DNA of 64,000 nt, taken from contig CP084166.1 in NCBI GenBank assembly GCA_021513695.1, positions 1,728,001 to 1,792,000 of the forward strand, written 5' to 3'. Positions 1,561 through 43,859 of the stretch are shown piece after piece. A program made the translations under genes and the position numbers. Positions within the stretch are counted from its first letter, which is position 1; every line of letters begins with the position of its first letter. Source of the DNA: Candidatus Heimdallarchaeum aukensis. GTDB lineage: Archaea; Asgardarchaeota; Heimdallarchaeia; Heimdallarchaeales; Heimdallarchaeaceae. The notes under the pieces are model-generated. The model was not told where the DNA came from. It did no database searches and saw only the letters and a program-made list of their open reading frames with translations.

Positions 1561-3858
1561 TTAAAGTTCATAATCATGGGTATGAAACATTACATCGCGG
1601 TTTACAGCTGCTTTAAACATCTGTAGAAGTAATTCATTGTCTGTTCTAATTGCTACAGGCACAGCATCTGGCACCAAAAATGCAAAGATTGCTTCGTCAA
1701 AACCATCCTTAATACCACAGAAAACATCCTTTTTATCGTATTGTCTTAATTTCAAACCTACAAATCGTTCTTTCAAGTTAATTAGAGCATTTCTAAATTT
1801 TCCAGAAGAAAAATCAGAAACAAGTGTTACTCTATTTGCTTTGGTGAACATTGCCATTTCTTCTAACAATGATTCTTCCAGATACGGTGTTATTACTAAC
1901 AACTCTCTACTAGCTCGCATACTTAAATCAGTTAAACTTGCAAGAATTGCTTCTTCCCCAACAATCACTGATACATTGTGATGTCCTCGAATGTTAATAG
2001 AATTTGCTGCTTTATCAATCTGCTTTAACTCACCCTCTCTTGTATTTATTATTTGATAATAGGCTGATGCTTTTTCTTGTAACAAAGCGAGTGTTTCCAT
2101 TATTGCTTCATCAACATCCTTGATAACAGAAGCTACTTGAGCAACAATAGTATCTATTTGTACTTCTTCTGCCTCAATTATTTTAGATGTCAGTTGTTCC
2201 TTTATTTCTTCTGTTTTTTCTTCCATAATTTTTATATCATTGTTTATATGATTCGCAATTTTGTCTTTAGTCTTTAACACTTTGCTTGAAAAGTCTTTAT
2301 CAAACATGGCCAATTTTTCTTTGAAATCTCCACCAATTTTTTTAATATCATCTTTTGTTTTATTTAACTCTGTATTCACTTCATTCTTGAAATCTATCAT
2401 TGTTTTTGAATGCTCATCATGGAACTGCTGGACATTTCCTATAATGTTCGACGAAGTGTTGTCCATACTTTCGGAAATAGTCTTGATTAAATTTGAACTA
2501 ACATCTCTACATGATTCGTAAGAAGAGGTTACATATTTCTCGACTTCATTTTGGATTTTGTTCAGAAGTTCATCAGGGAGGAGTTCTATTTTTTCAGTTG
2601 TTTCTGCTATTATTTTACTCTTTTTTGTTTTAATACTTGTTACTCCACTTAGTTGAAAATGATCAATTTTTTCACGTAGTTTATCTTTTGTTTCGTTAAT
2701 TTTTAAGACGTGTTGATCTACTATTTGGAGACCACTTTCTGAAAAATTATTAGCAAGCAACCTCATTCCATCTCTTACTTCCTGTAGTTTCTCGATTAAC
2801 GGGCTTGCTTTCTTTTTCTTCAGATCTTCTGCGAGATGTAAAGCATCAACTATAGTAGAAGAAAGTTTGTTTATGTTTCTATCAATTTGTTCTACAGATC
2901 TTCTTAGTTCTTGTGTTTGGCGAGTTTGTTCTGTTAAGATGAGATTAATATCTTGCTGCAAGGATTCAGCCAGGTTACGACTCTCCTTAATCCAAGCTTC
3001 AAAAGTATCTTCCCATATTCTTCTATATTCTTTTAGAAACTCTTGTTGTAATTCATTTGCATAGTTTAAATGTTCCTTCAAGACATTATCAAGTTCTGGT
3101 GCAAACTTATCTAAAAAATCTTTATGATTCTCCGTATGTGACTCAAGACCATTCTTTAAGATTTTAAATAATTCTGAAAAATTAGCTGAAAGCTGTTGTT
3201 CTATATTTTTTTTGTTTAATTCACTTCTTTTTTTTGCAGAATGTTCAAACTGTTTTATGAAAGCATCTAATTCTTGCAAATAAGACTCCATTCTGAGAGA
3301 TATGGCAATAGATTGGTTCTGAGCTTCTGCAATTTCTTTAGAAATCAAATTAACTGTTTCATCAAGGATATTAAATGATTCATTTTCTATTGCTTCAGTC
3401 ATTTCTACAAATTGAGAATTAACAGAATCAGTAAGTTGCTTTATTAACCCACTTACAATATGGATATCAAATATGTGCTCATCACTTGAAGTATCTAGTT
3501 TACCACCAAATTGCTTTCGTTTTTCTTTATAAGATGCTGCGTCATTCTTTAAACTATTTATTATTCCTTCAATTGCATATAATGTATCACGTTCTACTGT
3601 TATATATTGTTTCAAAAAAGGAAAAACAGCGAGATATTGTGGAGTTAAACCTTGAATTTTTTTAAGAAAACCGATCTCTTCCAGATTTCTTACTGACTGA
3701 ACTGTTGATAGAGCATCTAGTTGAGTTATAACCATGATTTCGCCTATCGTCGCTTTTCCTAAGCCAAGTATTGTTGTATATATTTTTATATCATTTTCAT
3801 TTAGACCAATTCTGGTTAATAATGGAGGTAATATGTTAACATCACTCATTTGTTTCAC
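1561..3858 (-). CDS. TrmB-like wHTH regulator with ~550-aa central coiled-coil and TrmB-C-like C-terminal domain
   Basis: N-terminus LLTRIGLNENDIKIYTTILGLGKATIGEIMV... matches TrmB-type wHTH; long heptad-rich K/E/Q-rich middle; C-terminus ...LLVITPYLEESLLEEM... resembles TrmB C-domain. Confidence 0.45.
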   Translation of the reverse strand: MKQMSDVNILPPLLTRIGLNENDIKIYTTILGLGKATIGEIMVITQLDALSTVQSVRNLEEIGFLKKIQGLTPQYLAVFPFLKQYITVERDTLYAIEGIINSLKNDAASYKEKRKQFGGKLDTSSDEHIFDIHIVSGLIKQLTDSVNSQFVEMTEAIENESFNILDETVNLISKEIAEAQNQSIAISLRMESYLQELDAFIKQFEHSAKKRSELNKKNIEQQLSANFSELFKILKNGLESHTENHKDFLDKFAPELDNVLKEHLNYANELQQEFLKEYRRIWEDTFEAWIKESRNLAESLQQDINLILTEQTRQTQELRRSVEQIDRNINKLSSTIVDALHLAEDLKKKKASPLIEKLQEVRDGMRLLANNFSESGLQIVDQHVLKINETKDKLREKIDHFQLSGVTSIKTKKSKIIAETTEKIELLPDELLNKIQNEVEKYVTSSYESCRDVSSNLIKTISESMDNTSSNIIGNVQQFHDEHSKTMIDFKNEVNTELNKTKDDIKKIGGDFKEKLAMFDKDFSSKVLKTKDKIANHINNDIKIMEEKTEEIKEQLTSKIIEAEEVQIDTIVAQVASVIKDVDEAIMETLALLQEKASAYYQIINTREGELKQIDKAANSINIRGHHNVSVIVGEEAILASLTDLSMRASRELLVITPYLEESLLEEMAMFTKANRVTLVSDFSSGKFRNALINLKERFVGLKLRQYDKKDVFCGIKDGFDEAIFAFLVPDAVPVAIRTDNELLLQMFKAAVNRDVMFHTHDYEL

Positions 3859-4061
3859 TCACATATAAATTAAATTTTATTTATTCTTTTATCTCTAATG
3901 TCATATTAAGCAGTATAGATTTTAAATTTTTGTTCTCAAAAACAGAAAGCAGTTATAAAAAATACTGATTATATCTTGCCCTCTTTTAACTTACTATCAG
4001 CTATAAATATGTTATTTAGAAATACACTATAGTTATAGTAAAAAGTGGGATAAAAAGAAAA

Positions 4062-4625
4062 TTAAGCATATAGTTTCTCATAGAAAAGTACAATGTTTTT
4101 TAGCAGAGTTTTAAATGCTTCGTCCACGTTTTCACCAGTCTTTGCTGAAGTTTCAATATATGGAACTGCAAAACCTGACCAAGCTGATAACGATCTTGCA
4201 TATTCTTCTGCTTGTTCCCGTAAAATGGGGTCTTTTGCTGTGTCCCTTAAATCAGATTTATTTCCAATTAAAACAATTGGAACAACACGATTATGATTAT
4301 TTTTTAATAGTTCTGCAATCCACGCAGGTATGTTCTCAAAAGATGACCTACGAGATATATCAAAAACAAGCAGGCAACCAGATGTTCCACGATAATATAC
4401 CTCCCGTACTGCTGAAAATCTTTGTTGCCCAGCTAAATCCCATATTTGTGCTACAAAATCCTGTTGATCTATTTTCAATCTTTTTACCGCAAAATCTGCA
4501 CCTATTGTCATACTATATCCTTCTTTAAACCCCTCACCTAGGTATGTTTTTCTGAGTGATGTTTTTCCTACAGCACCGTCACCGAGTAATGTTACTTTGA
4601 AAATTTTTCGCTGTGATGAACTCAT
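4062..4625 (-). CDS. Ras-superfamily small GTPase (Rab/Ras-like; Asgard ESP)
   Basis: G1 GDGAVGKTS, switch I T, G3 DLAGQ, G4 GNKSD, G5 ETSAK; 187 aa; no C-terminal prenylation Cys. Confidence 0.8.
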   Translation of the reverse strand: MSSSQRKIFKVTLLGDGAVGKTSLRKTYLGEGFKEGYSMTIGADFAVKRLKIDQQDFVAQIWDLAGQQRFSAVREVYYRGTSGCLLVFDISRRSSFENIPAWIAELLKNNHNRVVPIVLIGNKSDLRDTAKDPILREQAEEYARSLSAWSGFAVPYIETSAKTGENVDEAFKTLLKNIVLFYEKLYA

Positions 4626-4835
4626 TATTTATTCCCCAATTAACTCCAATTAGTAATGACTAAATTAACACTATAAATTAATTACTTTGTAATGCTTTAA
4701 ATATTTTGCTTACTAGGAAAAGTTTTTTCAAACAATTGTAAAAAAAACAAAAATTCAAGTTTCAAAAACCATGACTGAAAAAAATAAGAAATTTTGTGAG
4801 GACAAGATAATTAAGCTTAAAAGTTTCTGAAAAAT

Positions 4836-5522
4836 ATGAAAAATATGAACAAGTTAGCTAATGTCGTTCTTGAAAGACTTTTAGAACACTATGACATCAA
4901 AAAAAAGGAATTTTTGAATAATTATTCAACTCCCTTTCAGTTACTAGTTGCAGCATTATTAAGTGCTCAAAGCACTGACAAACAAGTGAACACTGTTACT
5001 AACCAACTCTTTAAAAGATATCCAGATCCCCAATCTTTTGCACAATCATCTCCAGAAGAGATAGAACAATATATTAAAAGCGTGGGACTTTACAAGACTA
5101 AAGCCCGAAATATCCATAATCTTTCTAAAGTTTTACTAAGTGAATATAACTCTTCGGTACCTAAAACAATTTCAGAACTAATAAAATTGCCAGGAATTGG
5201 AAGAAAAACAGCTAATGTTGTTTTAAATGATTGGTTTCAAATAAATGAAGGAATAGCAGTAGATACTCATGTGCAAAGAATTAGTTATCGTATAGGCTTA
5301 ACAAAGCATACCAATCCAGAAAAAATAGAAAAAGACTTGATGCTTCTTTTTCCAAAAAATAGTTGGGGTATATTGACTCGTTTATTTATTTCACATGGAA
5401 GAGAAATTTGCTTAGCTCGCAATCCAAAGTGTGATAATTGTTTTTTAAGTGATATTTGTAAAAAAAACATTATCAGAAAAAACAAATCAAGTAAAAGAGA
5501 GAAAAATAATATTACTAAATAA
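4836..5522 (+). CDS. nth: Endonuclease III (HhH-GPD DNA glycosylase/AP lyase)
   Basis: HhH LPGIGRKTANVVL, catalytic region, C-terminal 4Fe-4S cluster CLARNPKCDNCFLSDIC. Confidence 0.85.
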   Translation: MKNMNKLANVVLERLLEHYDIKKKEFLNNYSTPFQLLVAALLSAQSTDKQVNTVTNQLFKRYPDPQSFAQSSPEEIEQYIKSVGLYKTKARNIHNLSKVLLSEYNSSVPKTISELIKLPGIGRKTANVVLNDWFQINEGIAVDTHVQRISYRIGLTKHTNPEKIEKDLMLLFPKNSWGILTRLFISHGREICLARNPKCDNCFLSDICKKNIIRKNKSSKREKNNITK

Positions 5523-6273
5523 CTGTTGTATCAAAATTTGGATCTAGTTCTACGGTATCATCCTCTTTAAGTTGTACTATCTTTATTTTTTCTAATTCCT
5601 TAAGGTATTGTTTTGTTTGACTTAGAGAGATACCTAATACAAAAGATAACTGCATTTGAGAAATTGATTGTAACTGTTTTAACATACTTATTATTTTATA
5701 TCTTGGATCTGTAGAAACTAGTTTTTGTGTTATCTCCTTGACTTTATTCCACTGTTCTTTTTCTTCTTTTAGATTCTTCAATTCTTTTTCAATTTCAGAT
5801 TTTTTTACAGAAAGAGCAACTACTTGATCAGATAATTCATATATTAGTTGTTCTCGTTCTTCTAACATGCTAATAAGTCTAGAAATGTATTCTTTTTGTT
5901 CTTCGACAATGGAAATCTGTTCTTCTTGATTTTCAGTTTCTTCTTGTTTTTTGTACTTCTGTCTATCAAAATCTAATTCTTTTAACAATTTTTCTTTTTC
6001 ATCGACATCAGAAGAACTATAGAATAGTGTAATTAGTCTATAAAACTCTGATTTTATTTCGCTCAAAAGAAATTTGGTGGAACCGTCAATTTGCTCTTTA
6101 ATCATATCAACAATTGAAGTAATTTCAAAAGGAAGATCTTTACTTGTACTTGTTTGTAAAATAGGTGGATATTTTGTTAAACTCTCTTTTAAAGCTTGTA
6201 TTTCATTTGATAATTTTATAATTTCAGTAAGTATTCTCTCTTTTTCATTGTTTTTATTTTCATCTATTGTCAT
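5515..6273 (-). CDS. coiled-coil protein with C-terminal winged-helix-like segment (hypothetical)
   Basis: E/K/Q-rich heptad repeats; C-terminus LSFVLGISLSQTKQYLKELEKIKIV HTH-like; last gene of Roadblock operon. Confidence 0.4.
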   Translation of the reverse strand: MTIDENKNNEKERILTEIIKLSNEIQALKESLTKYPPILQTSTSKDLPFEITSIVDMIKEQIDGSTKFLLSEIKSEFYRLITLFYSSSDVDEKEKLLKELDFDRQKYKKQEETENQEEQISIVEEQKEYISRLISMLEEREQLIYELSDQVVALSVKKSEIEKELKNLKEEKEQWNKVKEITQKLVSTDPRYKIISMLKQLQSISQMQLSFVLGISLSQTKQYLKELEKIKIVQLKEDDTVELDPNFDTTVI

Positions 6274-6281
6274 TTTTCACC

Positions 6282-7112
6282 CTATATCTTTGAGGTTGAT
6301 TCGATCTTGAATCCTTCTTCTTCTGATGGAGATACATCCAAAACTTCACTTATATATGCAACACCCATTAATTTACTTATAGAAAATGTATCTCTTAACC
6401 TTGAACCAATTCTATCTCTTGTAAAATAGAAAATTCCTTGAGCATAATTTAAAATAATTTGTTCTGCTACAGGATTCAGAATATTTTGAGGGAGTAAAAA
6501 AAAGTGCACTCCACCTATTTTTGAAAACATCTGAATTATCTCTTTCATAAAACTAATTAATGTGTTATGATCGTCATCCAATTGATCTTCCTTTAGCCAT
6601 AGAAGGTCATCGAAAACACTAAAACAATTCTTTTTCTGTGTTTCTTTAACATGCATAATCTTTTCTATAATACGTTTAACGTATGTTCTTCTTTTTACCT
6701 CAATTCGCCCTATTTTTAATGAAGTAGTTGTGCTGCTAGCCATATCATACATATTTTCAAAGAAAAAAGATTTGTCCTTTACACTCATTATATCCCAGTT
6801 GTATGCCGTATATGATTGTTTTACAAGCTCAAATGGTTTACTACTATGCACATAAAAAACACGGTTAAGATCAGTTTTTTGAGCCCAGTTAAGAACAATA
6901 CGTTGTACAAATAACAGAGGAATTACTGAAGATGCAGGGTAAGAAACGACAATTACAGAACCAGAAGGAATACCTTGTCTTGCAGACATCTCCATACCAA
7001 GCTTTTGATCTAAAGAACGAATTCCAGTTTTAATTAATCCTGTGGAAAGTGTAGATTCAGCGCCTACTTTACCTATTCTTTCTATATTTCCTCTTGTATT
7101 GTTGAAACTCAT
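6282..7112 (-). CDS. KaiC/RadA-like RecA-superfamily domain protein with degenerate Walker A (predicted inactive ATPase)
   Basis: TGIRSLDQKLG...GIPSGSVIVVSYPASS aligns to the KaiC TGIxGLDxxLGGGxPxGSxxLxxGxPGxGKT block but the GKT P-loop is replaced by SYPASS; downstream FYVHSS/NWDI blocks conserved. Confidence 0.5.
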   Translation of the reverse strand: MSFNNTRGNIERIGKVGAESTLSTGLIKTGIRSLDQKLGMEMSARQGIPSGSVIVVSYPASSVIPLLFVQRIVLNWAQKTDLNRVFYVHSSKPFELVKQSYTAYNWDIMSVKDKSFFFENMYDMASSTTTSLKIGRIEVKRRTYVKRIIEKIMHVKETQKKNCFSVFDDLLWLKEDQLDDDHNTLISFMKEIIQMFSKIGGVHFFLLPQNILNPVAEQIILNYAQGIFYFTRDRIGSRLRDTFSISKLMGVAYISEVLDVSPSEEEGFKIESTSKI

Positions 7113-7138
7113 CTTCTAACCCCGCATAGAGTAATTAT

Positions 7139-7666
7139 TTAGAATTCTTCTAGTTCTTTTAGTGCGAGTTCAAGATCAGATAAATACTCTTCTTGAACAG
7201 ATTCAACTTTTGGAGTTGGTTCAGCAGTTGAAACTTGTGTTGGTGTACTAACGGGTTGTTTTGCTTCTATGGGTTTTGTTTCAACATCCAATATTGCTCT
7301 GATATTTTCAGACTGTATTTTCATAGTTCGTCTAACCAAACCTAGTTGAATGCCTGCATCTGTTATAAGACAGAGTACAGAGCTACCACAACTAGCAACT
7401 AAAATAAATCCATCTTCAAATTCTGAGATAATAATATCCAAATTTTCTAGACCAACATTTGTTCCTTGTTGTTCAGAAGCTAAATATACTGCACTTGCTA
7501 TTGCTCCTAGAGCTTCTGTTTCAAACTCATCGAAAGCAAATCTTGAAGAATATGCCAGTGTCAACCCTGTTTTATCAGCTAAAATAACATGGTTTATTAA
7601 AGGATCACTTGTAATAATTTCATGGAGAATACTGTTTATCTTATCTACACCGATAATTCTTATCAC
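7139..7666 (-). CDS. Roadblock/LC7 (MglB-like) domain protein
   Basis: INHVILADKTGLTLAYSS...ALGAIASAVY...GFILVASCGSSVLCLITDAGIQLGLV matches Robl_LC7 profile; ~55-aa low-complexity C-terminal tail. Confidence 0.75.
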   Translation of the reverse strand: MIRIIGVDKINSILHEIITSDPLINHVILADKTGLTLAYSSRFAFDEFETEALGAIASAVYLASEQQGTNVGLENLDIIISEFEDGFILVASCGSSVLCLITDAGIQLGLVRRTMKIQSENIRAILDVETKPIEAKQPVSTPTQVSTAEPTPKVESVQEEYLSDLELALKELEEF

Positions 7667-7838
7667 CTTTACTAACTAATCATAGTTATTATATACTATT
7701 AATAATTAGTTATATAAGCGTTAGTCTCAGAAGAATAAAAATTTTACCAAAATAACGAGAAAGCTAGACATAAATTTAGAAAAAGCACATTTAAAATCCT
7801 AGAGCAAGATTTTTATTGGATTTACTATTGTATAATAT

Positions 7839-8519
7839 ATGAGAAAATTAGAATACCCAATCATTATTTTAAATTTTAAAAATTACAGTGAAGGAACAGG
7901 AGAAAAAGCATTAAAACTTGCAAAAATTGCAGAAGAAGTCTCAAAAAATAAAAATGTAAATATTGCTATTTGCCCTCAGACTGTCGATATTAGAATGATT
8001 TCACAAAATGTAGACTTACCTGTTTTAGCCCAACATGTGGATTCTAACAATCCAGGTAGTCATACTGGAAACAATCTAATTGATGCTATTATTGAAGCTG
8101 GTGCAGTGGGAACACTGGTCAACCACTCAGAACATCAACTAAAGATTTCAGAAATAGAAGCAATAATTGAAAAATCAAAAGAGAAAGGCTTCTTAACTTG
8201 TGTTTGTGCAAATAACATAAAAACAAGTATATCTTTAGCCGCGTTAGATCCAACTTGTTGTGCAATGGAACCTCCAGAGTTAATTGGGGGAGATGTTTCG
8301 GTTACAACAAAACCAGACTTGGTTAGAAAAACAGTAGAATCTATAAAAAATATTAATCCTAATGTAATTCCTTTAGTTGGAGCAGGAGTAAAAACAAGAG
8401 AGGATATAGAAAAAGCAATAAAATTAGGAGCTAAAGGTGTACTACTTGCTTCAGGTTTCGTTAAGGCAAAAAACCCAAAACAAGCTCTAGAAGAAATGGC
8501 AGAAGGAATTTTAAGTTGA
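7839..8519 (+). CDS. tpiA: Triosephosphate isomerase (archaeal short type)
   Basis: 226 aa; NHSEHQL catalytic His region, EPPELIGG (catalytic Glu), VGAGVKT phosphate loop. Confidence 0.85.
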   Translation: MRKLEYPIIILNFKNYSEGTGEKALKLAKIAEEVSKNKNVNIAICPQTVDIRMISQNVDLPVLAQHVDSNNPGSHTGNNLIDAIIEAGAVGTLVNHSEHQLKISEIEAIIEKSKEKGFLTCVCANNIKTSISLAALDPTCCAMEPPELIGGDVSVTTKPDLVRKTVESIKNINPNVIPLVGAGVKTREDIEKAIKLGAKGVLLASGFVKAKNPKQALEEMAEGILS

Positions 8520-8552: not shown

Positions 8553-9017
8553 CTAATTTCTTTTCCACATTAATTTTCCATTTTGCTCGATTTTGCTTAA
8601 TACTCCGGCTTTCTCCATCTCTGAAAGAGTCTTTGTAAATTCTTCCTTCGATAAAGGTTGTTCTCCTTTCTTCATTCTAGAGAAAACACATGCCGTATAT
8701 AGCGCATCTTCATACATAAATTTGCTAGAGGAAAATGATTCTAGTATTAGGTTCATATTGGGAATTTTATGCTCTTTGACTACTGTTTCTACTTTTTGTA
8801 CAGATGGTGTAATTGTACTAATTTTTGAACTGAAAATATCTGTTAACAAATCTGAAAGTTTTTTTCCTGTTATGGTCTCTGAAAAACCATACAACTCAGC
8901 AAGACCAGACACTGCATGAAGGATAAAATGTTCAATAGATGTGAATTTACCCTCCTCAACTTTCTTTTCTATAAAACTATACAGTTCATCTGGTATGTTC
9001 AAGTTAAATTGTTTCAA
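8553..9017 (-). CDS. hypothetical protein with N-terminal ribbon-helix-helix (CopG/Arc-like) motif
   Basis: MKQFNLNIPDELYSFIEKKVEEGKFTSIEHFI resembles RHH beta-strand/helix pattern; remainder unassigned. Confidence 0.3.
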   Translation of the reverse strand: MKQFNLNIPDELYSFIEKKVEEGKFTSIEHFILHAVSGLAELYGFSETITGKKLSDLLTDIFSSKISTITPSVQKVETVVKEHKIPNMNLILESFSSSKFMYEDALYTACVFSRMKKGEQPLSKEEFTKTLSEMEKAGVLSKIEQNGKLMWKRN

Positions 9018-13266: not shown

Positions 13267-13824
13267 ATGGGAAAGGATATTGAAGTCAAATTTAGAGACT
13301 ATGAAGTGTACAAACTGAGTATCTGCGGACCAGGTCAAGCAGGAAAGACAAGTTTATGTAAAAGACTTGTACATAACAAATTTACCAAATCCTATAAAGA
13401 AACAGTGGGGGCAGAATTTTTTAGCTATAAATTTAACACAAAGAAAGGAAAAAATGTTGGCTTATTTTACGATTTTGCGGGACAACAACGATTTGTAAGT
13501 GTACGTAATGTTCTTTATCCTGGCACAGATGCTGCAGCAGTTGTATTTGATGTTACAAAAAGGGATTCTTTTCGTTCTGTTGCCCAATACATTAGAGAGT
13601 TAAGGACGAAACTTAAAGATGTTGAAATAACAATTGTTGGAAACAAAATTGATTCTAAAAAAAGAGAGATTTCATTTGAAGATGCAAAGAGAATAGCAGA
13701 AAAACTAGGTTGTAAGTACGTTGAAACCTCTGCTGCAACTGGTGAAGGATTAGGAGAATTTTTCAAAACATTAATACATTCTGCAATTTCATATAAAAAG
13801 AAAAAAATAAGTGTTGTAGAATGA
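13267..13824 (+). CDS. Ras-superfamily small GTPase (Asgard ESP)
   Basis: G1 GPGQAGKTS, G3 DFAGQ, G4 GNKID, G5 ETSAA; 185 aa. Confidence 0.8.
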   Translation: MGKDIEVKFRDYEVYKLSICGPGQAGKTSLCKRLVHNKFTKSYKETVGAEFFSYKFNTKKGKNVGLFYDFAGQQRFVSVRNVLYPGTDAAAVVFDVTKRDSFRSVAQYIRELRTKLKDVEITIVGNKIDSKKREISFEDAKRIAEKLGCKYVETSAATGEGLGEFFKTLIHSAISYKKKKISVVE

Positions 13825-43748: not shown

Positions 43749-43859
43749 GCCAGGATACTCAAGCGGTAAGAGGTATGCCTGGAGAGTAATAATTCCAAGG
43801 TTTACCCATTAAGCATATGCCTTTATGGCTCCGGGGTTCAAATCCCCGTCCTGGCTCCA
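43749..43859 (+). tRNA. tRNA-Ser (anticodon GGA) with 27-nt intron in anticodon loop, long variable arm, encoded CCA
   Basis: Acceptor GCCAGGA/TCCTGGC (7 bp), T-arm CGGGG-TTCAAAT-CCCCG, anticodon stem TATGC/GCATA flanking CTGGAG[intron 43785-43811]A giving loop CUGGAGA, variable arm GCC-TTTAT-GGC; discriminator U then CCA. Confidence 0.6.

Follow-up and report, generated by a model that had tools for sequence, protein, structure and literature searches.

Does an inactivated KaiC-like protein take the place of the small GTPase that usually partners a Roadblock/LC7 protein, or does it join the two in a larger assembly? This question is raised by three adjacent genes of the Asgard archaeon Candidatus Heimdallarchaeum aukensis (Heimdallarchaeia; Heimdallarchaeaceae), found in a 64,000-nucleotide (nt) stretch of contig CP084166.1 (assembly GCA_021513695.1, forward-strand positions 1,728,001 to 1,792,000), which has a GC content of ~30% and is referred to here as the window; all coordinates are window positions unless a locus is named. 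The genes encode a Roadblock/LC7 protein, a single-domain KaiC-like protein with a RecA fold whose ATPase site is lost (the pseudo-KaiC, or pKaiC, a kind of inactivated KaiC, or iKaiC), and an acidic coiled-coil protein that ends in a winged helix-turn-helix (wHTH). Our preferred reading, which is tentative and to which we give a probability of about 45%, is that the trio constitutes one operon for a putative non-enzymatic signalling or adaptor complex, made of a GTPase, the Roadblock protein, an inactivated-KaiC scaffold and a coiled-coil output protein.

Three genes in a compact operon

The three open reading frames are arranged on the minus strand as a first-pass annotation, made from the sequence alone, had described them. 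The Roadblock gene (gene 1; 7139..7666) has a GTG start and encodes 175 amino acids (aa) with an isoelectric point (pI) of 4.3; the pKaiC gene (gene 2; 6282..7112) encodes 276 aa with a pI of 9.1; and gene 3 (5515..6273), for the coiled-coil wHTH protein, encodes 252 aa with a pI of 4.9. The Roadblock stop is separated from the pKaiC ATG by 26 nt, and the pKaiC stop from the ATG of gene 3 by 8 nt. Both gaps are too short for internal promoters and both contain Shine-Dalgarno-like motifs, namely, GGGGT in the former and GGTGA in the latter. At its 3' end gene 3 overlaps by 8 nt the convergent nth gene (4836-5522, plus strand), which lies between the trio and a gene for a Rab-like small GTPase. 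At the other end, the 172 nt intergenic region that the trio has in common with the divergent tpiA gene (7667..7838) is the presumed operon promoter: sequence inspection places a TATA-like element, TTATATAA, ~45-50 nt upstream of the Roadblock start, and a similar element, CTTTAAATA, occurs upstream in orthologous loci.

The GTG start of the Roadblock gene sits within AGGTGA, which is itself Shine-Dalgarno-like (7655-7670, minus strand). An ATT codon at 7657 would yield the N-terminus M-I-G-V-D-K-I-N, of the same length as the M-F/Y-G-A-D-Q-I-N of the orthologs, so the true start may be non-canonical. Compared with Candidatus Heimdallarchaeum endolithica PR6 (L007, CP084167.1), identities are 96.6% for Roadblock, 97.8% for pKaiC, 90.5% for the gene 3 protein and 98.9% for the GTPase. 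These four proteins fall into two groups by charge, with the Roadblock and gene 3 proteins (pI 4.3 and 4.9) on one side and pKaiC and the GTPase (both 9.1) on the other. PADLOC models gave no matches for the trio, the GTPase or the neighbouring gene p154, and an identity as an anti-phage defence system was ruled out on this basis.

A KaiC-type fold without an ATPase site

Taken alone, the window pKaiC sequence gave no Pfam or NCBIfam matches, and the KaiC model PF06745 was absent even at E values up to 1; DSN1, suggested as a relative by a single-sequence PDB search, was discarded since the matches were at chance level. The family provided the resolution required. We found 56 relatives, and every source name that states an organism points to a Heimdall-group archaeon; many of these relatives have precomputed matches to PF06745 and to PF23442 (DUF7125). 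PF06745 is matched by 17 of 22 aligned orthologs (E up to 0.1), and a profile of the orthologs searched against the PDB led to PH0284, SSO2452 and FlaH. Fold comparison ranked SSO2452 (23.7), PH0284 (23.5), KaiC (23.0) and FlaH (22.4 and 21.8) at the top, followed by Elp4 (19.2) and the Rad51, RadA and RadB types (15.5-18.6). Since KaiC, FlaH and their kin rank above the recombinases, the fold of pKaiC is KaiC-type rather than recombinase-type. Profiles, structure prediction and fold search thus agree on the RecA/KaiC-like fold that had been proposed for 6282-7112.

The catalytic machinery of this fold has disappeared throughout the family. At the Walker A position (residues 57-65; 6918..6944, minus strand), identified by alignment to active KaiC-like proteins, the window protein reads S-Y-P-A-S-S-V-I-P, and all 22 aligned orthologs read S-Y/F-P-S/A-x-T/S-V-I-P, with GK[ST] in none of them. 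The replacement recorded by the first-pass annotation therefore holds for every ortholog aligned. Each residue of this site has its counterpart in the GPAGAGKS of an active KaiC paralog (hhalign probability 92%), and the site also aligns with GGPGTGKT of PH0284, such that the three glycines, the lysine and the Ser/Thr of the P-loop are all substituted. The catalytic acidic pair is lost as well, a point that the annotation had not made: residues 89-92 (H-S-S-K; 6837..6848, minus strand), which are H-S-S-K/R in the orthologs with S90 invariant, stand opposite LEEH in PH0284 and SFDE in the active paralog. What is kept is a Walker-B-like strand, F-S-V-F-D-D-L-L-W (residues 164-172; 6597..6623, minus strand), recognised by alignment and structure prediction, in which F164, D168, L170 and W172 are invariant in 22/22 orthologs and which overlaps a strand predicted at 162-167. 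With both the P-loop and the catalytic acids substituted in every ortholog, canonical ATP hydrolysis is excluded for the family, in line with the earlier description of a catalytically dead KaiC-like module; nucleotide binding is unlikely too. Residues 127-137 (6702-6734, minus strand) form a Ser/Thr-rich loop, SSTTTSLKIG, modelled with low confidence, where S131, G135 and I137 are invariant or nearly so; this is a possible phospho-acceptor or partner-binding loop.

Comparison with known KaiC-like proteins sets pKaiC apart. Unlike circadian KaiC, it consists of one domain of 276 aa with no CI/CII duplication, and its neighbourhood contains no KaiB-like gene. SSO2452, PH0284 and ArlH/FlaH are likewise single-domain KaiC-like proteins; in our alignments PH0284 has GGPGTGKT and SSO2452 has GEPGTGKT, whereas pKaiC has neither a P-loop nor the catalytic acids. 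With Elp4/5/6 of the eukaryotic Elongator it shares only the fold, since there is no Elp3 or tRNA-modification context, and any KaiC-like model would probably match Elp4 at a similar level. For a pKaiC acting on a wHTH protein, the nearest functional analogy may be the GvpD-GvpE pair of haloarchaeal gas vesicles, in which the KaiC-like GvpD controls the transcription activator GvpE by direct binding. However, the P-loop of GvpD is intact and required for function, no Roadblock protein or GTPase takes part, and GvpE is outside the coiled-coil wHTH family of gene 3.

An MglB-like Roadblock protein

The window Roadblock protein matches PF03259 with 31.5 bits against a cutoff of 23, and this family is matched by 14/14 diverse orthologs, 12 of which also match MAPKK1_Int (the MP1/LAMTOR3 family). 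Its core domain (residues 18-101 by the Pfam envelope; 7364..7615, minus strand) is strongly conserved and includes the invariant motif ADKTGLT...GAISAVYLASEQQG. A profile of the 14 orthologs searched against the PDB gave Myxococcus xanthus MglB as the top match (6izw_B, E 8.8e-7, 130 aa aligned), with LAMTOR2/p14 in second place (E ~5e-4). The lone window sequence had placed LAMTOR2 (0.011) ahead of MglB (0.3); a LAMTOR2-like rather than MglB-like identity was dropped when the family profile reversed this order, and the assignment to an MglB-like subfamily, as anticipated by the first reading of the sequence, is soft for the same reason.

Beyond the core, a Pro-rich variable linker leads to an acidic C-terminal helix, VQEEYLSDLELALKELEEF (7142..7198, minus strand), which is a putative docking peptide. 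The tail VQDEFISDLELALRELEQF, which from its composition appears to be helical, is identical in ~27 species, whereas the linker that precedes it varies in both sequence and length; the last 24 residues carry a net charge of -5 to -7 across orthologs. In M. xanthus, MglB uses a D/E-rich C-terminal (Ct) helix to bind a pocket of its GTPase, MglA, and this helix brings about the exchange of nucleotide (PMC6785124). The window protein agrees with the MglA-MglB systems of Myxococcus and Thermus in its layout of core, disordered linker and D/E-rich C-terminal helix, in having MglB as its nearest profile match and in being encoded close to a small Ras-superfamily GTPase, and by this analogy it is a putative GTPase-activating protein (GAP) or guanine-nucleotide exchange factor (GEF) for a cognate small GTPase. 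The two systems differ in that the window GTPase resembles Rab proteins rather than MglA, in that its gene is convergent or separated and not co-transcribed with the Roadblock gene, and in that MglAB has nothing that corresponds to pKaiC or to the coiled-coil wHTH protein.

A second comparison is with Ragulator-Rag. The Roadblock matches to LAMTOR2 and to the MP1/LAMTOR3 family, together with the neighbouring small GTPase and a scaffold-like third protein, are points of likeness. On the other hand, there is only one Roadblock gene in the 64-kb window; the GTPase comprises a G domain only, with no C-terminal Roadblock domain, and is Rab-like rather than Rag-like; no LAMTOR1-like protein is encoded at this locus; and MglB outscores LAMTOR2 for the window Roadblock.

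A coiled-coil protein with a winged helix

Gene 3 encodes the fastest-evolving member of the trio, with a median identity to the window protein of 37.6%. A word-index search recovered only 7 relatives of it, and its orthologs were therefore collected from the loci. It was modelled with AlphaFold2 (AF2) from a shallow alignment of 7 sequences, at a mean predicted local distance difference test (pLDDT) score of 74 and a predicted template modelling (pTM) score of 0.29. The model has two N-terminal helices followed by a single long helix of 95 residues (90-184; 5722..6006, minus strand), with pLDDT >90 over ~130-180, which is presumed to form a dimeric coiled coil. We infer such pairing from a hydrophobic fraction of 0.48 at a/d positions, compared with 0.31 overall. 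An invariant patch within this helix, E-R-E-x-L-I-Y-E-L-S-D-Q (residues 139-150), is a candidate partner-binding site.

The long helix leads to a winged helix-turn-helix (residues 190-243; 5545..5706, minus strand) of helix-strand-helix-helix-strand-strand order, with helices at 190-201, 206-213 and 217-229 and strands at 203-205, 233-235 and 240-243. This agrees with the coiled coil and winged-helix-like end that had been noticed beforehand. The top Foldseek matches to this domain, at E ~4e-3 and probability 1.0, were MarR, CzrA (ArsR type), CadC and IclR, all of them DNA-binding. A metagenome scan with deep-branching wHTH homologs, which looked for wHTH-KaiC pairing, yielded no more than a contig that was known already and a fragment of 1 kb.

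Conservation of the trio across Heimdallarchaeia

To place the trio in an evolutionary context, the neighbourhoods of 34 species-representative pKaiC-relative loci, together with loci reached through distant homologs, were scored with profile hidden Markov models. The trio arrangement recurs in ~30 species-level genomes of Heimdallarchaeia, and therefore it is not due to chance. About 28 Heimdallarchaeaceae loci have the same order, namely, p154 (forward), tpiA (reverse), Roadblock, pKaiC and wHTH (all forward), GTPase (reverse), nth and a gene for a TrmB-like protein of 765 aa (both forward). The Roadblock-pKaiC gap is typically 22-29 nt in the orthologous loci, and most of them have a pKaiC-wHTH gap of 0 or -1 nt.

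Two further groups retain the genes in other surroundings. In the clade formed by L003, L033 and L034, whose pKaiC is 47% identical, the trio is kept among unrelated flanks, namely, an A/V-ATPase B subunit, an MFS transporter and RLI; this retention is the strongest evidence for a functional unit. At the Kariarchaeaceae locus L042, the same seven kinds of genes as in Heimdallarchaeaceae are found, rearranged and with different outer flanks: TrmB-like (reverse), Roadblock and p154 (both forward), GTPase, wHTH and pKaiC (all reverse) and tpiA (forward). The inference of a signalling or regulatory unit rather than an enzyme, already drawn in the first-pass annotation, is reasonable in view of this co-conservation and of the protein assignments given above.

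A Rab-like GTPase encoded next to the trio

The probable functional partner of the trio is a Rab-like small GTPase of 187 aa and pI 9.1 (4062..4625, minus strand; PF00071, 1.7e-49), whose gene, on the same strand as the trio and with nth in between as first annotated, starts 890 nt from the end of gene 3 and ~2.5 kb from the Roadblock gene. Its best PDB match is a Thorarchaeota Rab (3e-39), followed by Ypt7/Rab7 and Rab11. The G1, G3, G4 and G5 motifs are intact (GDGAVGKT, DLAGQ, NKSD and SAK), and the C-terminus, ...LFYEKLYA, has no Cys prenylation motif.

In 26 related species the gene directly beyond the wHTH gene, and convergent with it, is the GTPase ortholog, an adjacency that the first-pass annotation, in which the GTPase gene figured as lying some way off, had missed. 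Relative to other Heimdallarchaeaceae, the window and H. endolithica PR6 have an inversion of the nth-GTPase block (window 4626-5522 compared with 7666-9764 of L005), and a DUF6512 gene that lies between nth and the GTPase gene in the latter is absent from both. Across these 26 species the GTPase is the most conserved product of the neighbourhood (89.6-94.0% identity), a constraint that is unusually strong for a small GTPase. Median identities to the window are 92.5% for the GTPase, 72.3% for Roadblock, 61.8% for tpiA, 61.4% for pKaiC, 59.9% for nth, 49.5% for p154 and 47.1% for the TrmB-like protein, all above the value for the wHTH protein.

At L042, a Rab-like GTPase gene runs in the same direction as those for pKaiC and the wHTH protein. 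This gene was ruled out as an ortholog of the window GTPase, to which its product is 31% identical, and it is equally far from a second Ras-like small GTPase of the window (13267-13824, plus strand), itself 36% identical to the first. Being a separate paralog, it represents a second, independent GTPase adjacency. These observations bear on the question with which we started, for the first-pass annotation had cast the dead KaiC as a stand-in for the usual GTPase partner, and the comparative evidence speaks against this contrast. Given the adjacency in 26 species, the GTPase at L042 and the MglB-like layout of the Roadblock protein, it is more likely that the GTPase is a further partner than that it has been replaced.

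A wider group of inactivated KaiC-like proteins

The boundary of the pKaiC family was drawn by searching 1.84 billion cluster representatives exhaustively with a profile, which returned two full-length representatives at 496 and 377 bits and a few fragments, with everything else at or below 83 bits. The nearest outsiders keep G-x-P-G-S-G, followed by F/Y/I in place of the Walker A lysine, and carry DUF7125/PF23442. These proteins (P0136-P0149; L044-L048) come from Hodarchaeales, Sifarchaeia/Borrarchaeum and other Heimdall-group archaea, as well as from Methanofastidiosia and Theionarchaea. Since they too lack the Walker A lysine, the Heimdall pKaiC family can be regarded as a further-degenerated branch of a wider inactivated KaiC-like group.

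The gene contexts of the sister iKaiCs (L044-L048) are heterogeneous: an active KaiC in Borrarchaeum; AMMECR1 and an RsgA-like GTPase, with a Ras-like GTPase upstream; an RFC large subunit with an XPD-like helicase; Type-IV-pilus genes; or NAC and SSB. In Hodarchaeales, GTPase genes flank a sister iKaiC, which counts in favour of a GTPase partner. None of the sister loci examined has a Roadblock or gene 3-type wHTH neighbour, so the trio is an innovation within Heimdallarchaeia. Directly after the sister iKaiC of L046 come the RFC large subunit gene (2966-4555) and then that for the XPD-like helicase (4690-6528), and an RFC small-subunit gene (6866-7801) directly follows the pKaiC homolog of L001. 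Such neighbours hint that part of the wider iKaiC family is connected with replication or repair.

According to PMC5847659, which cites Makarova, Galperin and Koonin 2017, iKaiC domains have been proposed as archaeal signal-transduction modules, not enzymes, and the examples described there combine the domain with REC, HalOD1 or MEDS-type modules in one protein. pKaiC conforms to this picture in having a KaiC-superfamily fold with an ATPase site disrupted throughout the family; it differs in standing alone, in having a further-degraded P-loop with no glycines left, and in being partnered by a Roadblock protein and by a coiled-coil wHTH protein.

Conserved neighbours and other features of the window

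Several genes travel with the trio. The product of p154 (8553..9017, minus strand; 154 aa) combines a ribbon-helix-helix-like N-terminus with a winged-helix-like C-terminus and has only weak profile matches, to ParD, VapB and Cdc6_C. Its gene is a conserved neighbour in two families: it accompanies the trio in Heimdallarchaeaceae, and at the Kariarchaeaceae locus L042 it is the next gene downstream of Roadblock. The system may thus have p154 as its fourth member. The 765-aa protein (1561..3858, minus strand) has an N-terminal TrmB-type winged helix (PF01978, 29.4 bits, cutoff 25.6) followed by ~600 residues of helical repeats, and its gene, present in the Heimdallarchaeaceae loci, is divergent from the Roadblock gene at L042. 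PADLOC matched this protein to ZorA, an identity that we rejected because the matches are confined to the helical region and most likely reflect coiled-coil similarity. The triosephosphate isomerase gene tpiA (7839-8519, plus strand) is the divergent immediate neighbour in two families, adjoining the Roadblock gene in Heimdallarchaeaceae and the pKaiC gene in Kariarchaeaceae.

Genes for the B (and A) subunits of an A/V-type ATPase adjoin the module, or a solo pKaiC, in three deep-branching lineages and in differing orientations (L003, 3771-5207; L034, 7903-9339; L035, 6815-8587 and 9225-10670); there are none within 6 kb of the module in Heimdallarchaeaceae, the window included. Elsewhere in the window, Rfam recognised a tRNA of 108 nt at 43749-43856 (plus strand; 44.5 bits), long enough to hold an intron, and ARAGORN reported none in the window.

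A model of the complex and its alternatives

Under our preferred reading, the basic pKaiC would serve as a scaffold, with one side binding the acidic Roadblock dimer, possibly through the Roadblock C-terminal helix, and the other side binding the acidic coiled-coil dimer, possibly at the E-R-E-x-L-I-Y-E-L-S-D-Q patch. The Roadblock protein would, in addition, serve the Rab-like GTPase next door as a platform with GAP or GEF function, comparable to that of MglB for MglA. Whether the coiled-coil/winged-helix protein is held or released, or whether it is active, could then depend on the nucleotide state of this GTPase, and the output would be transcription if the winged helix binds DNA, or else recruitment of another partner. 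The charge complementarity between acidic Roadblock and wHTH proteins and basic pKaiC and GTPase counts in favour of such a complex, as does a link between wHTH and KaiC-fold proteins seen in L001, where the wHTH homolog adjoins an active KaiC paralog instead.

A number of observations weigh against this reading. The expectation that the trio would be co-conserved in related genomes held for Heimdallarchaeaceae, the L003 clade and, in rearranged form, L042, but failed in the deepest lineages, where the trio is dispersed: pKaiC is solitary in L035 and L036, and in L001/L037 it adjoins an RFC subunit gene, with the Roadblock ortholog ~13 kb off on the same contig and a wHTH homolog 3 kb away. 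Synteny in Heimdallarchaeaceae is also broad, taking in a block of at least 10 genes that includes tpiA, nth and ribosomal protein genes, and since it spans housekeeping genes, adjacency within this family amounts to about one evolutionary event. As for the GTPase, none is encoded within 5 kb in the L003 clade, the one at L042 is a paralog, and some adjacency is to be expected by chance because small GTPases are frequent, with two in the window itself. Finally, the net charge of the winged helix in Heimdallarchaeaceae lies between 0 and +2 and its wing is acidic (NEDGTVSL) in most orthologs, which is unusual for a DNA binder, and the gene 3 protein stays under the Pfam cutoffs (HTH_24, 18.7 vs 21.9; MarR, 15.9 vs 24.6; HVO_A0114, 15.6 vs 27.6), as does the L001 homolog (26.1 vs 27.6).

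These last observations would fit a GTPase-effector or tether module with no transcriptional output, in which the coiled-coil protein would act as a tether or adaptor like a Rab effector, its winged helix would bind protein and the Roadblock and pKaiC proteins would localise or regulate it. It is the same complex with a different output, and we regard it as unlikely. Long coiled coils are common among eukaryotic Rab effectors and the winged helices of ESCRT-II bind protein, which would suit the Rab-like character of the neighbouring GTPase and the overall acidity of the gene 3 protein. Nevertheless, the best fold matches of the winged helix are all DNA-binding regulators, the predicted recognition helix keeps the conserved polar/basic residues S-L-S-Q-T-K/R-K/R-Y, and in the L003 clade the domain reaches +5 to +6 with a basic wing. 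Given a charge near 0 in Heimdallarchaeaceae and clearly positive in that clade, DNA binding by gene 3 is plausible but uncertain. That DNA binding could alternatively serve repair, recombination or replication, with pKaiC as a RadA/Rad55-type non-catalytic mediator comparable to the Rad51 paralogs; 'RAD55 family' labels and the nth and RFC neighbours can be cited for such an accessory role, which the fold ranking of KaiC over Rad51 and the presence of a Roadblock partner render quite improbable. A fainter prospect is a mixed ring or pair in which pKaiC, as the inactive subunit, would combine with an active KaiC-like ATPase encoded elsewhere to give a phosphorylation switch, with Roadblock as input, wHTH as output and the GTPase irrelevant. 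The sister iKaiC paired with an active KaiC gene in Borrarchaeum would fit, as would the invariant S131 of the Ser/Thr-rich loop, which could accept phosphate, and the L001 wHTH homolog, since the active KaiC paralog beside it has an intact Walker A; yet there is no active KaiC paralog in the window or within 6 kb in ~30 loci. As to the trio being mere inherited synteny with no functional link, the broad Heimdallarchaeaceae block and the split in deep lineages are what it would predict, but the tight same-strand spacing (0 or -1 nt and 22-29 nt), the retention of the trio among unrelated flanks in the L003 clade and its passage through the L042 rearrangement leave it little credence.

Implications for signalling in Heimdallarchaeia

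The most far-reaching idea that the locus suggests, which we consider a long shot and the least probable of those entertained here, is of a prokaryotic precursor to nutrient or energy signalling of the Ragulator type, in which an MglB/LAMTOR-like Roadblock, a nearly invariant Rab/Rag-like GTPase and a pseudo-NTPase scaffold would register metabolic or A/V-ATPase status and pass it on to gene regulators. The hints are the A/V-ATPase genes beside the module in three deep lineages, the divergent tpiA in two families, the TrmB-family regulator that travels with the cluster and the match of most Roadblock orthologs to MP1/LAMTOR3. PMC8813620 describes Heimdallarchaeia as the Asgard clade phylogenetically closest to eukaryotes.

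The iKaiC signalling modules and the Roadblock-GTPase pairs are each known already; what appears to be new is their combination, together with a specific pairing of a Roadblock protein with a Rab-like GTPase in Heimdallarchaeia. A literature search found no link between Roadblock and KaiC-like or iKaiC proteins in Asgard archaea, although the 2017 iKaiC paper may mention a Roadblock neighbourhood, and the H. endolithica genome paper treats these families only collectively. Small GTPases number in the dozens in Asgard archaea, and Roadblock and longin proteins are numerous as well. In a structural survey of the Asgard archaeon MK-D1, GTPase genes were generally found outside operons with Roadblock, longin or TRAPPC3, which makes pairs hard to predict (PMC10933270).

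The locus described here is an exception to the MK-D1 pattern, as it nominates one Roadblock protein, with an MglB-style docking helix, as the regulator of one extremely conserved Rab-like GTPase, and it adds two unexpected partners to this pairing, namely, pKaiC and the coiled-coil wHTH protein. Since the four proteins are small and soluble-looking, and ~30 orthologous sets are available for paired-alignment modelling, the hypothesis is directly testable in vitro. If true, it would join KaiC-like hubs to Roadblock-GTPase switches, and thereby connect themes in signalling that have until now been discussed apart from each other.

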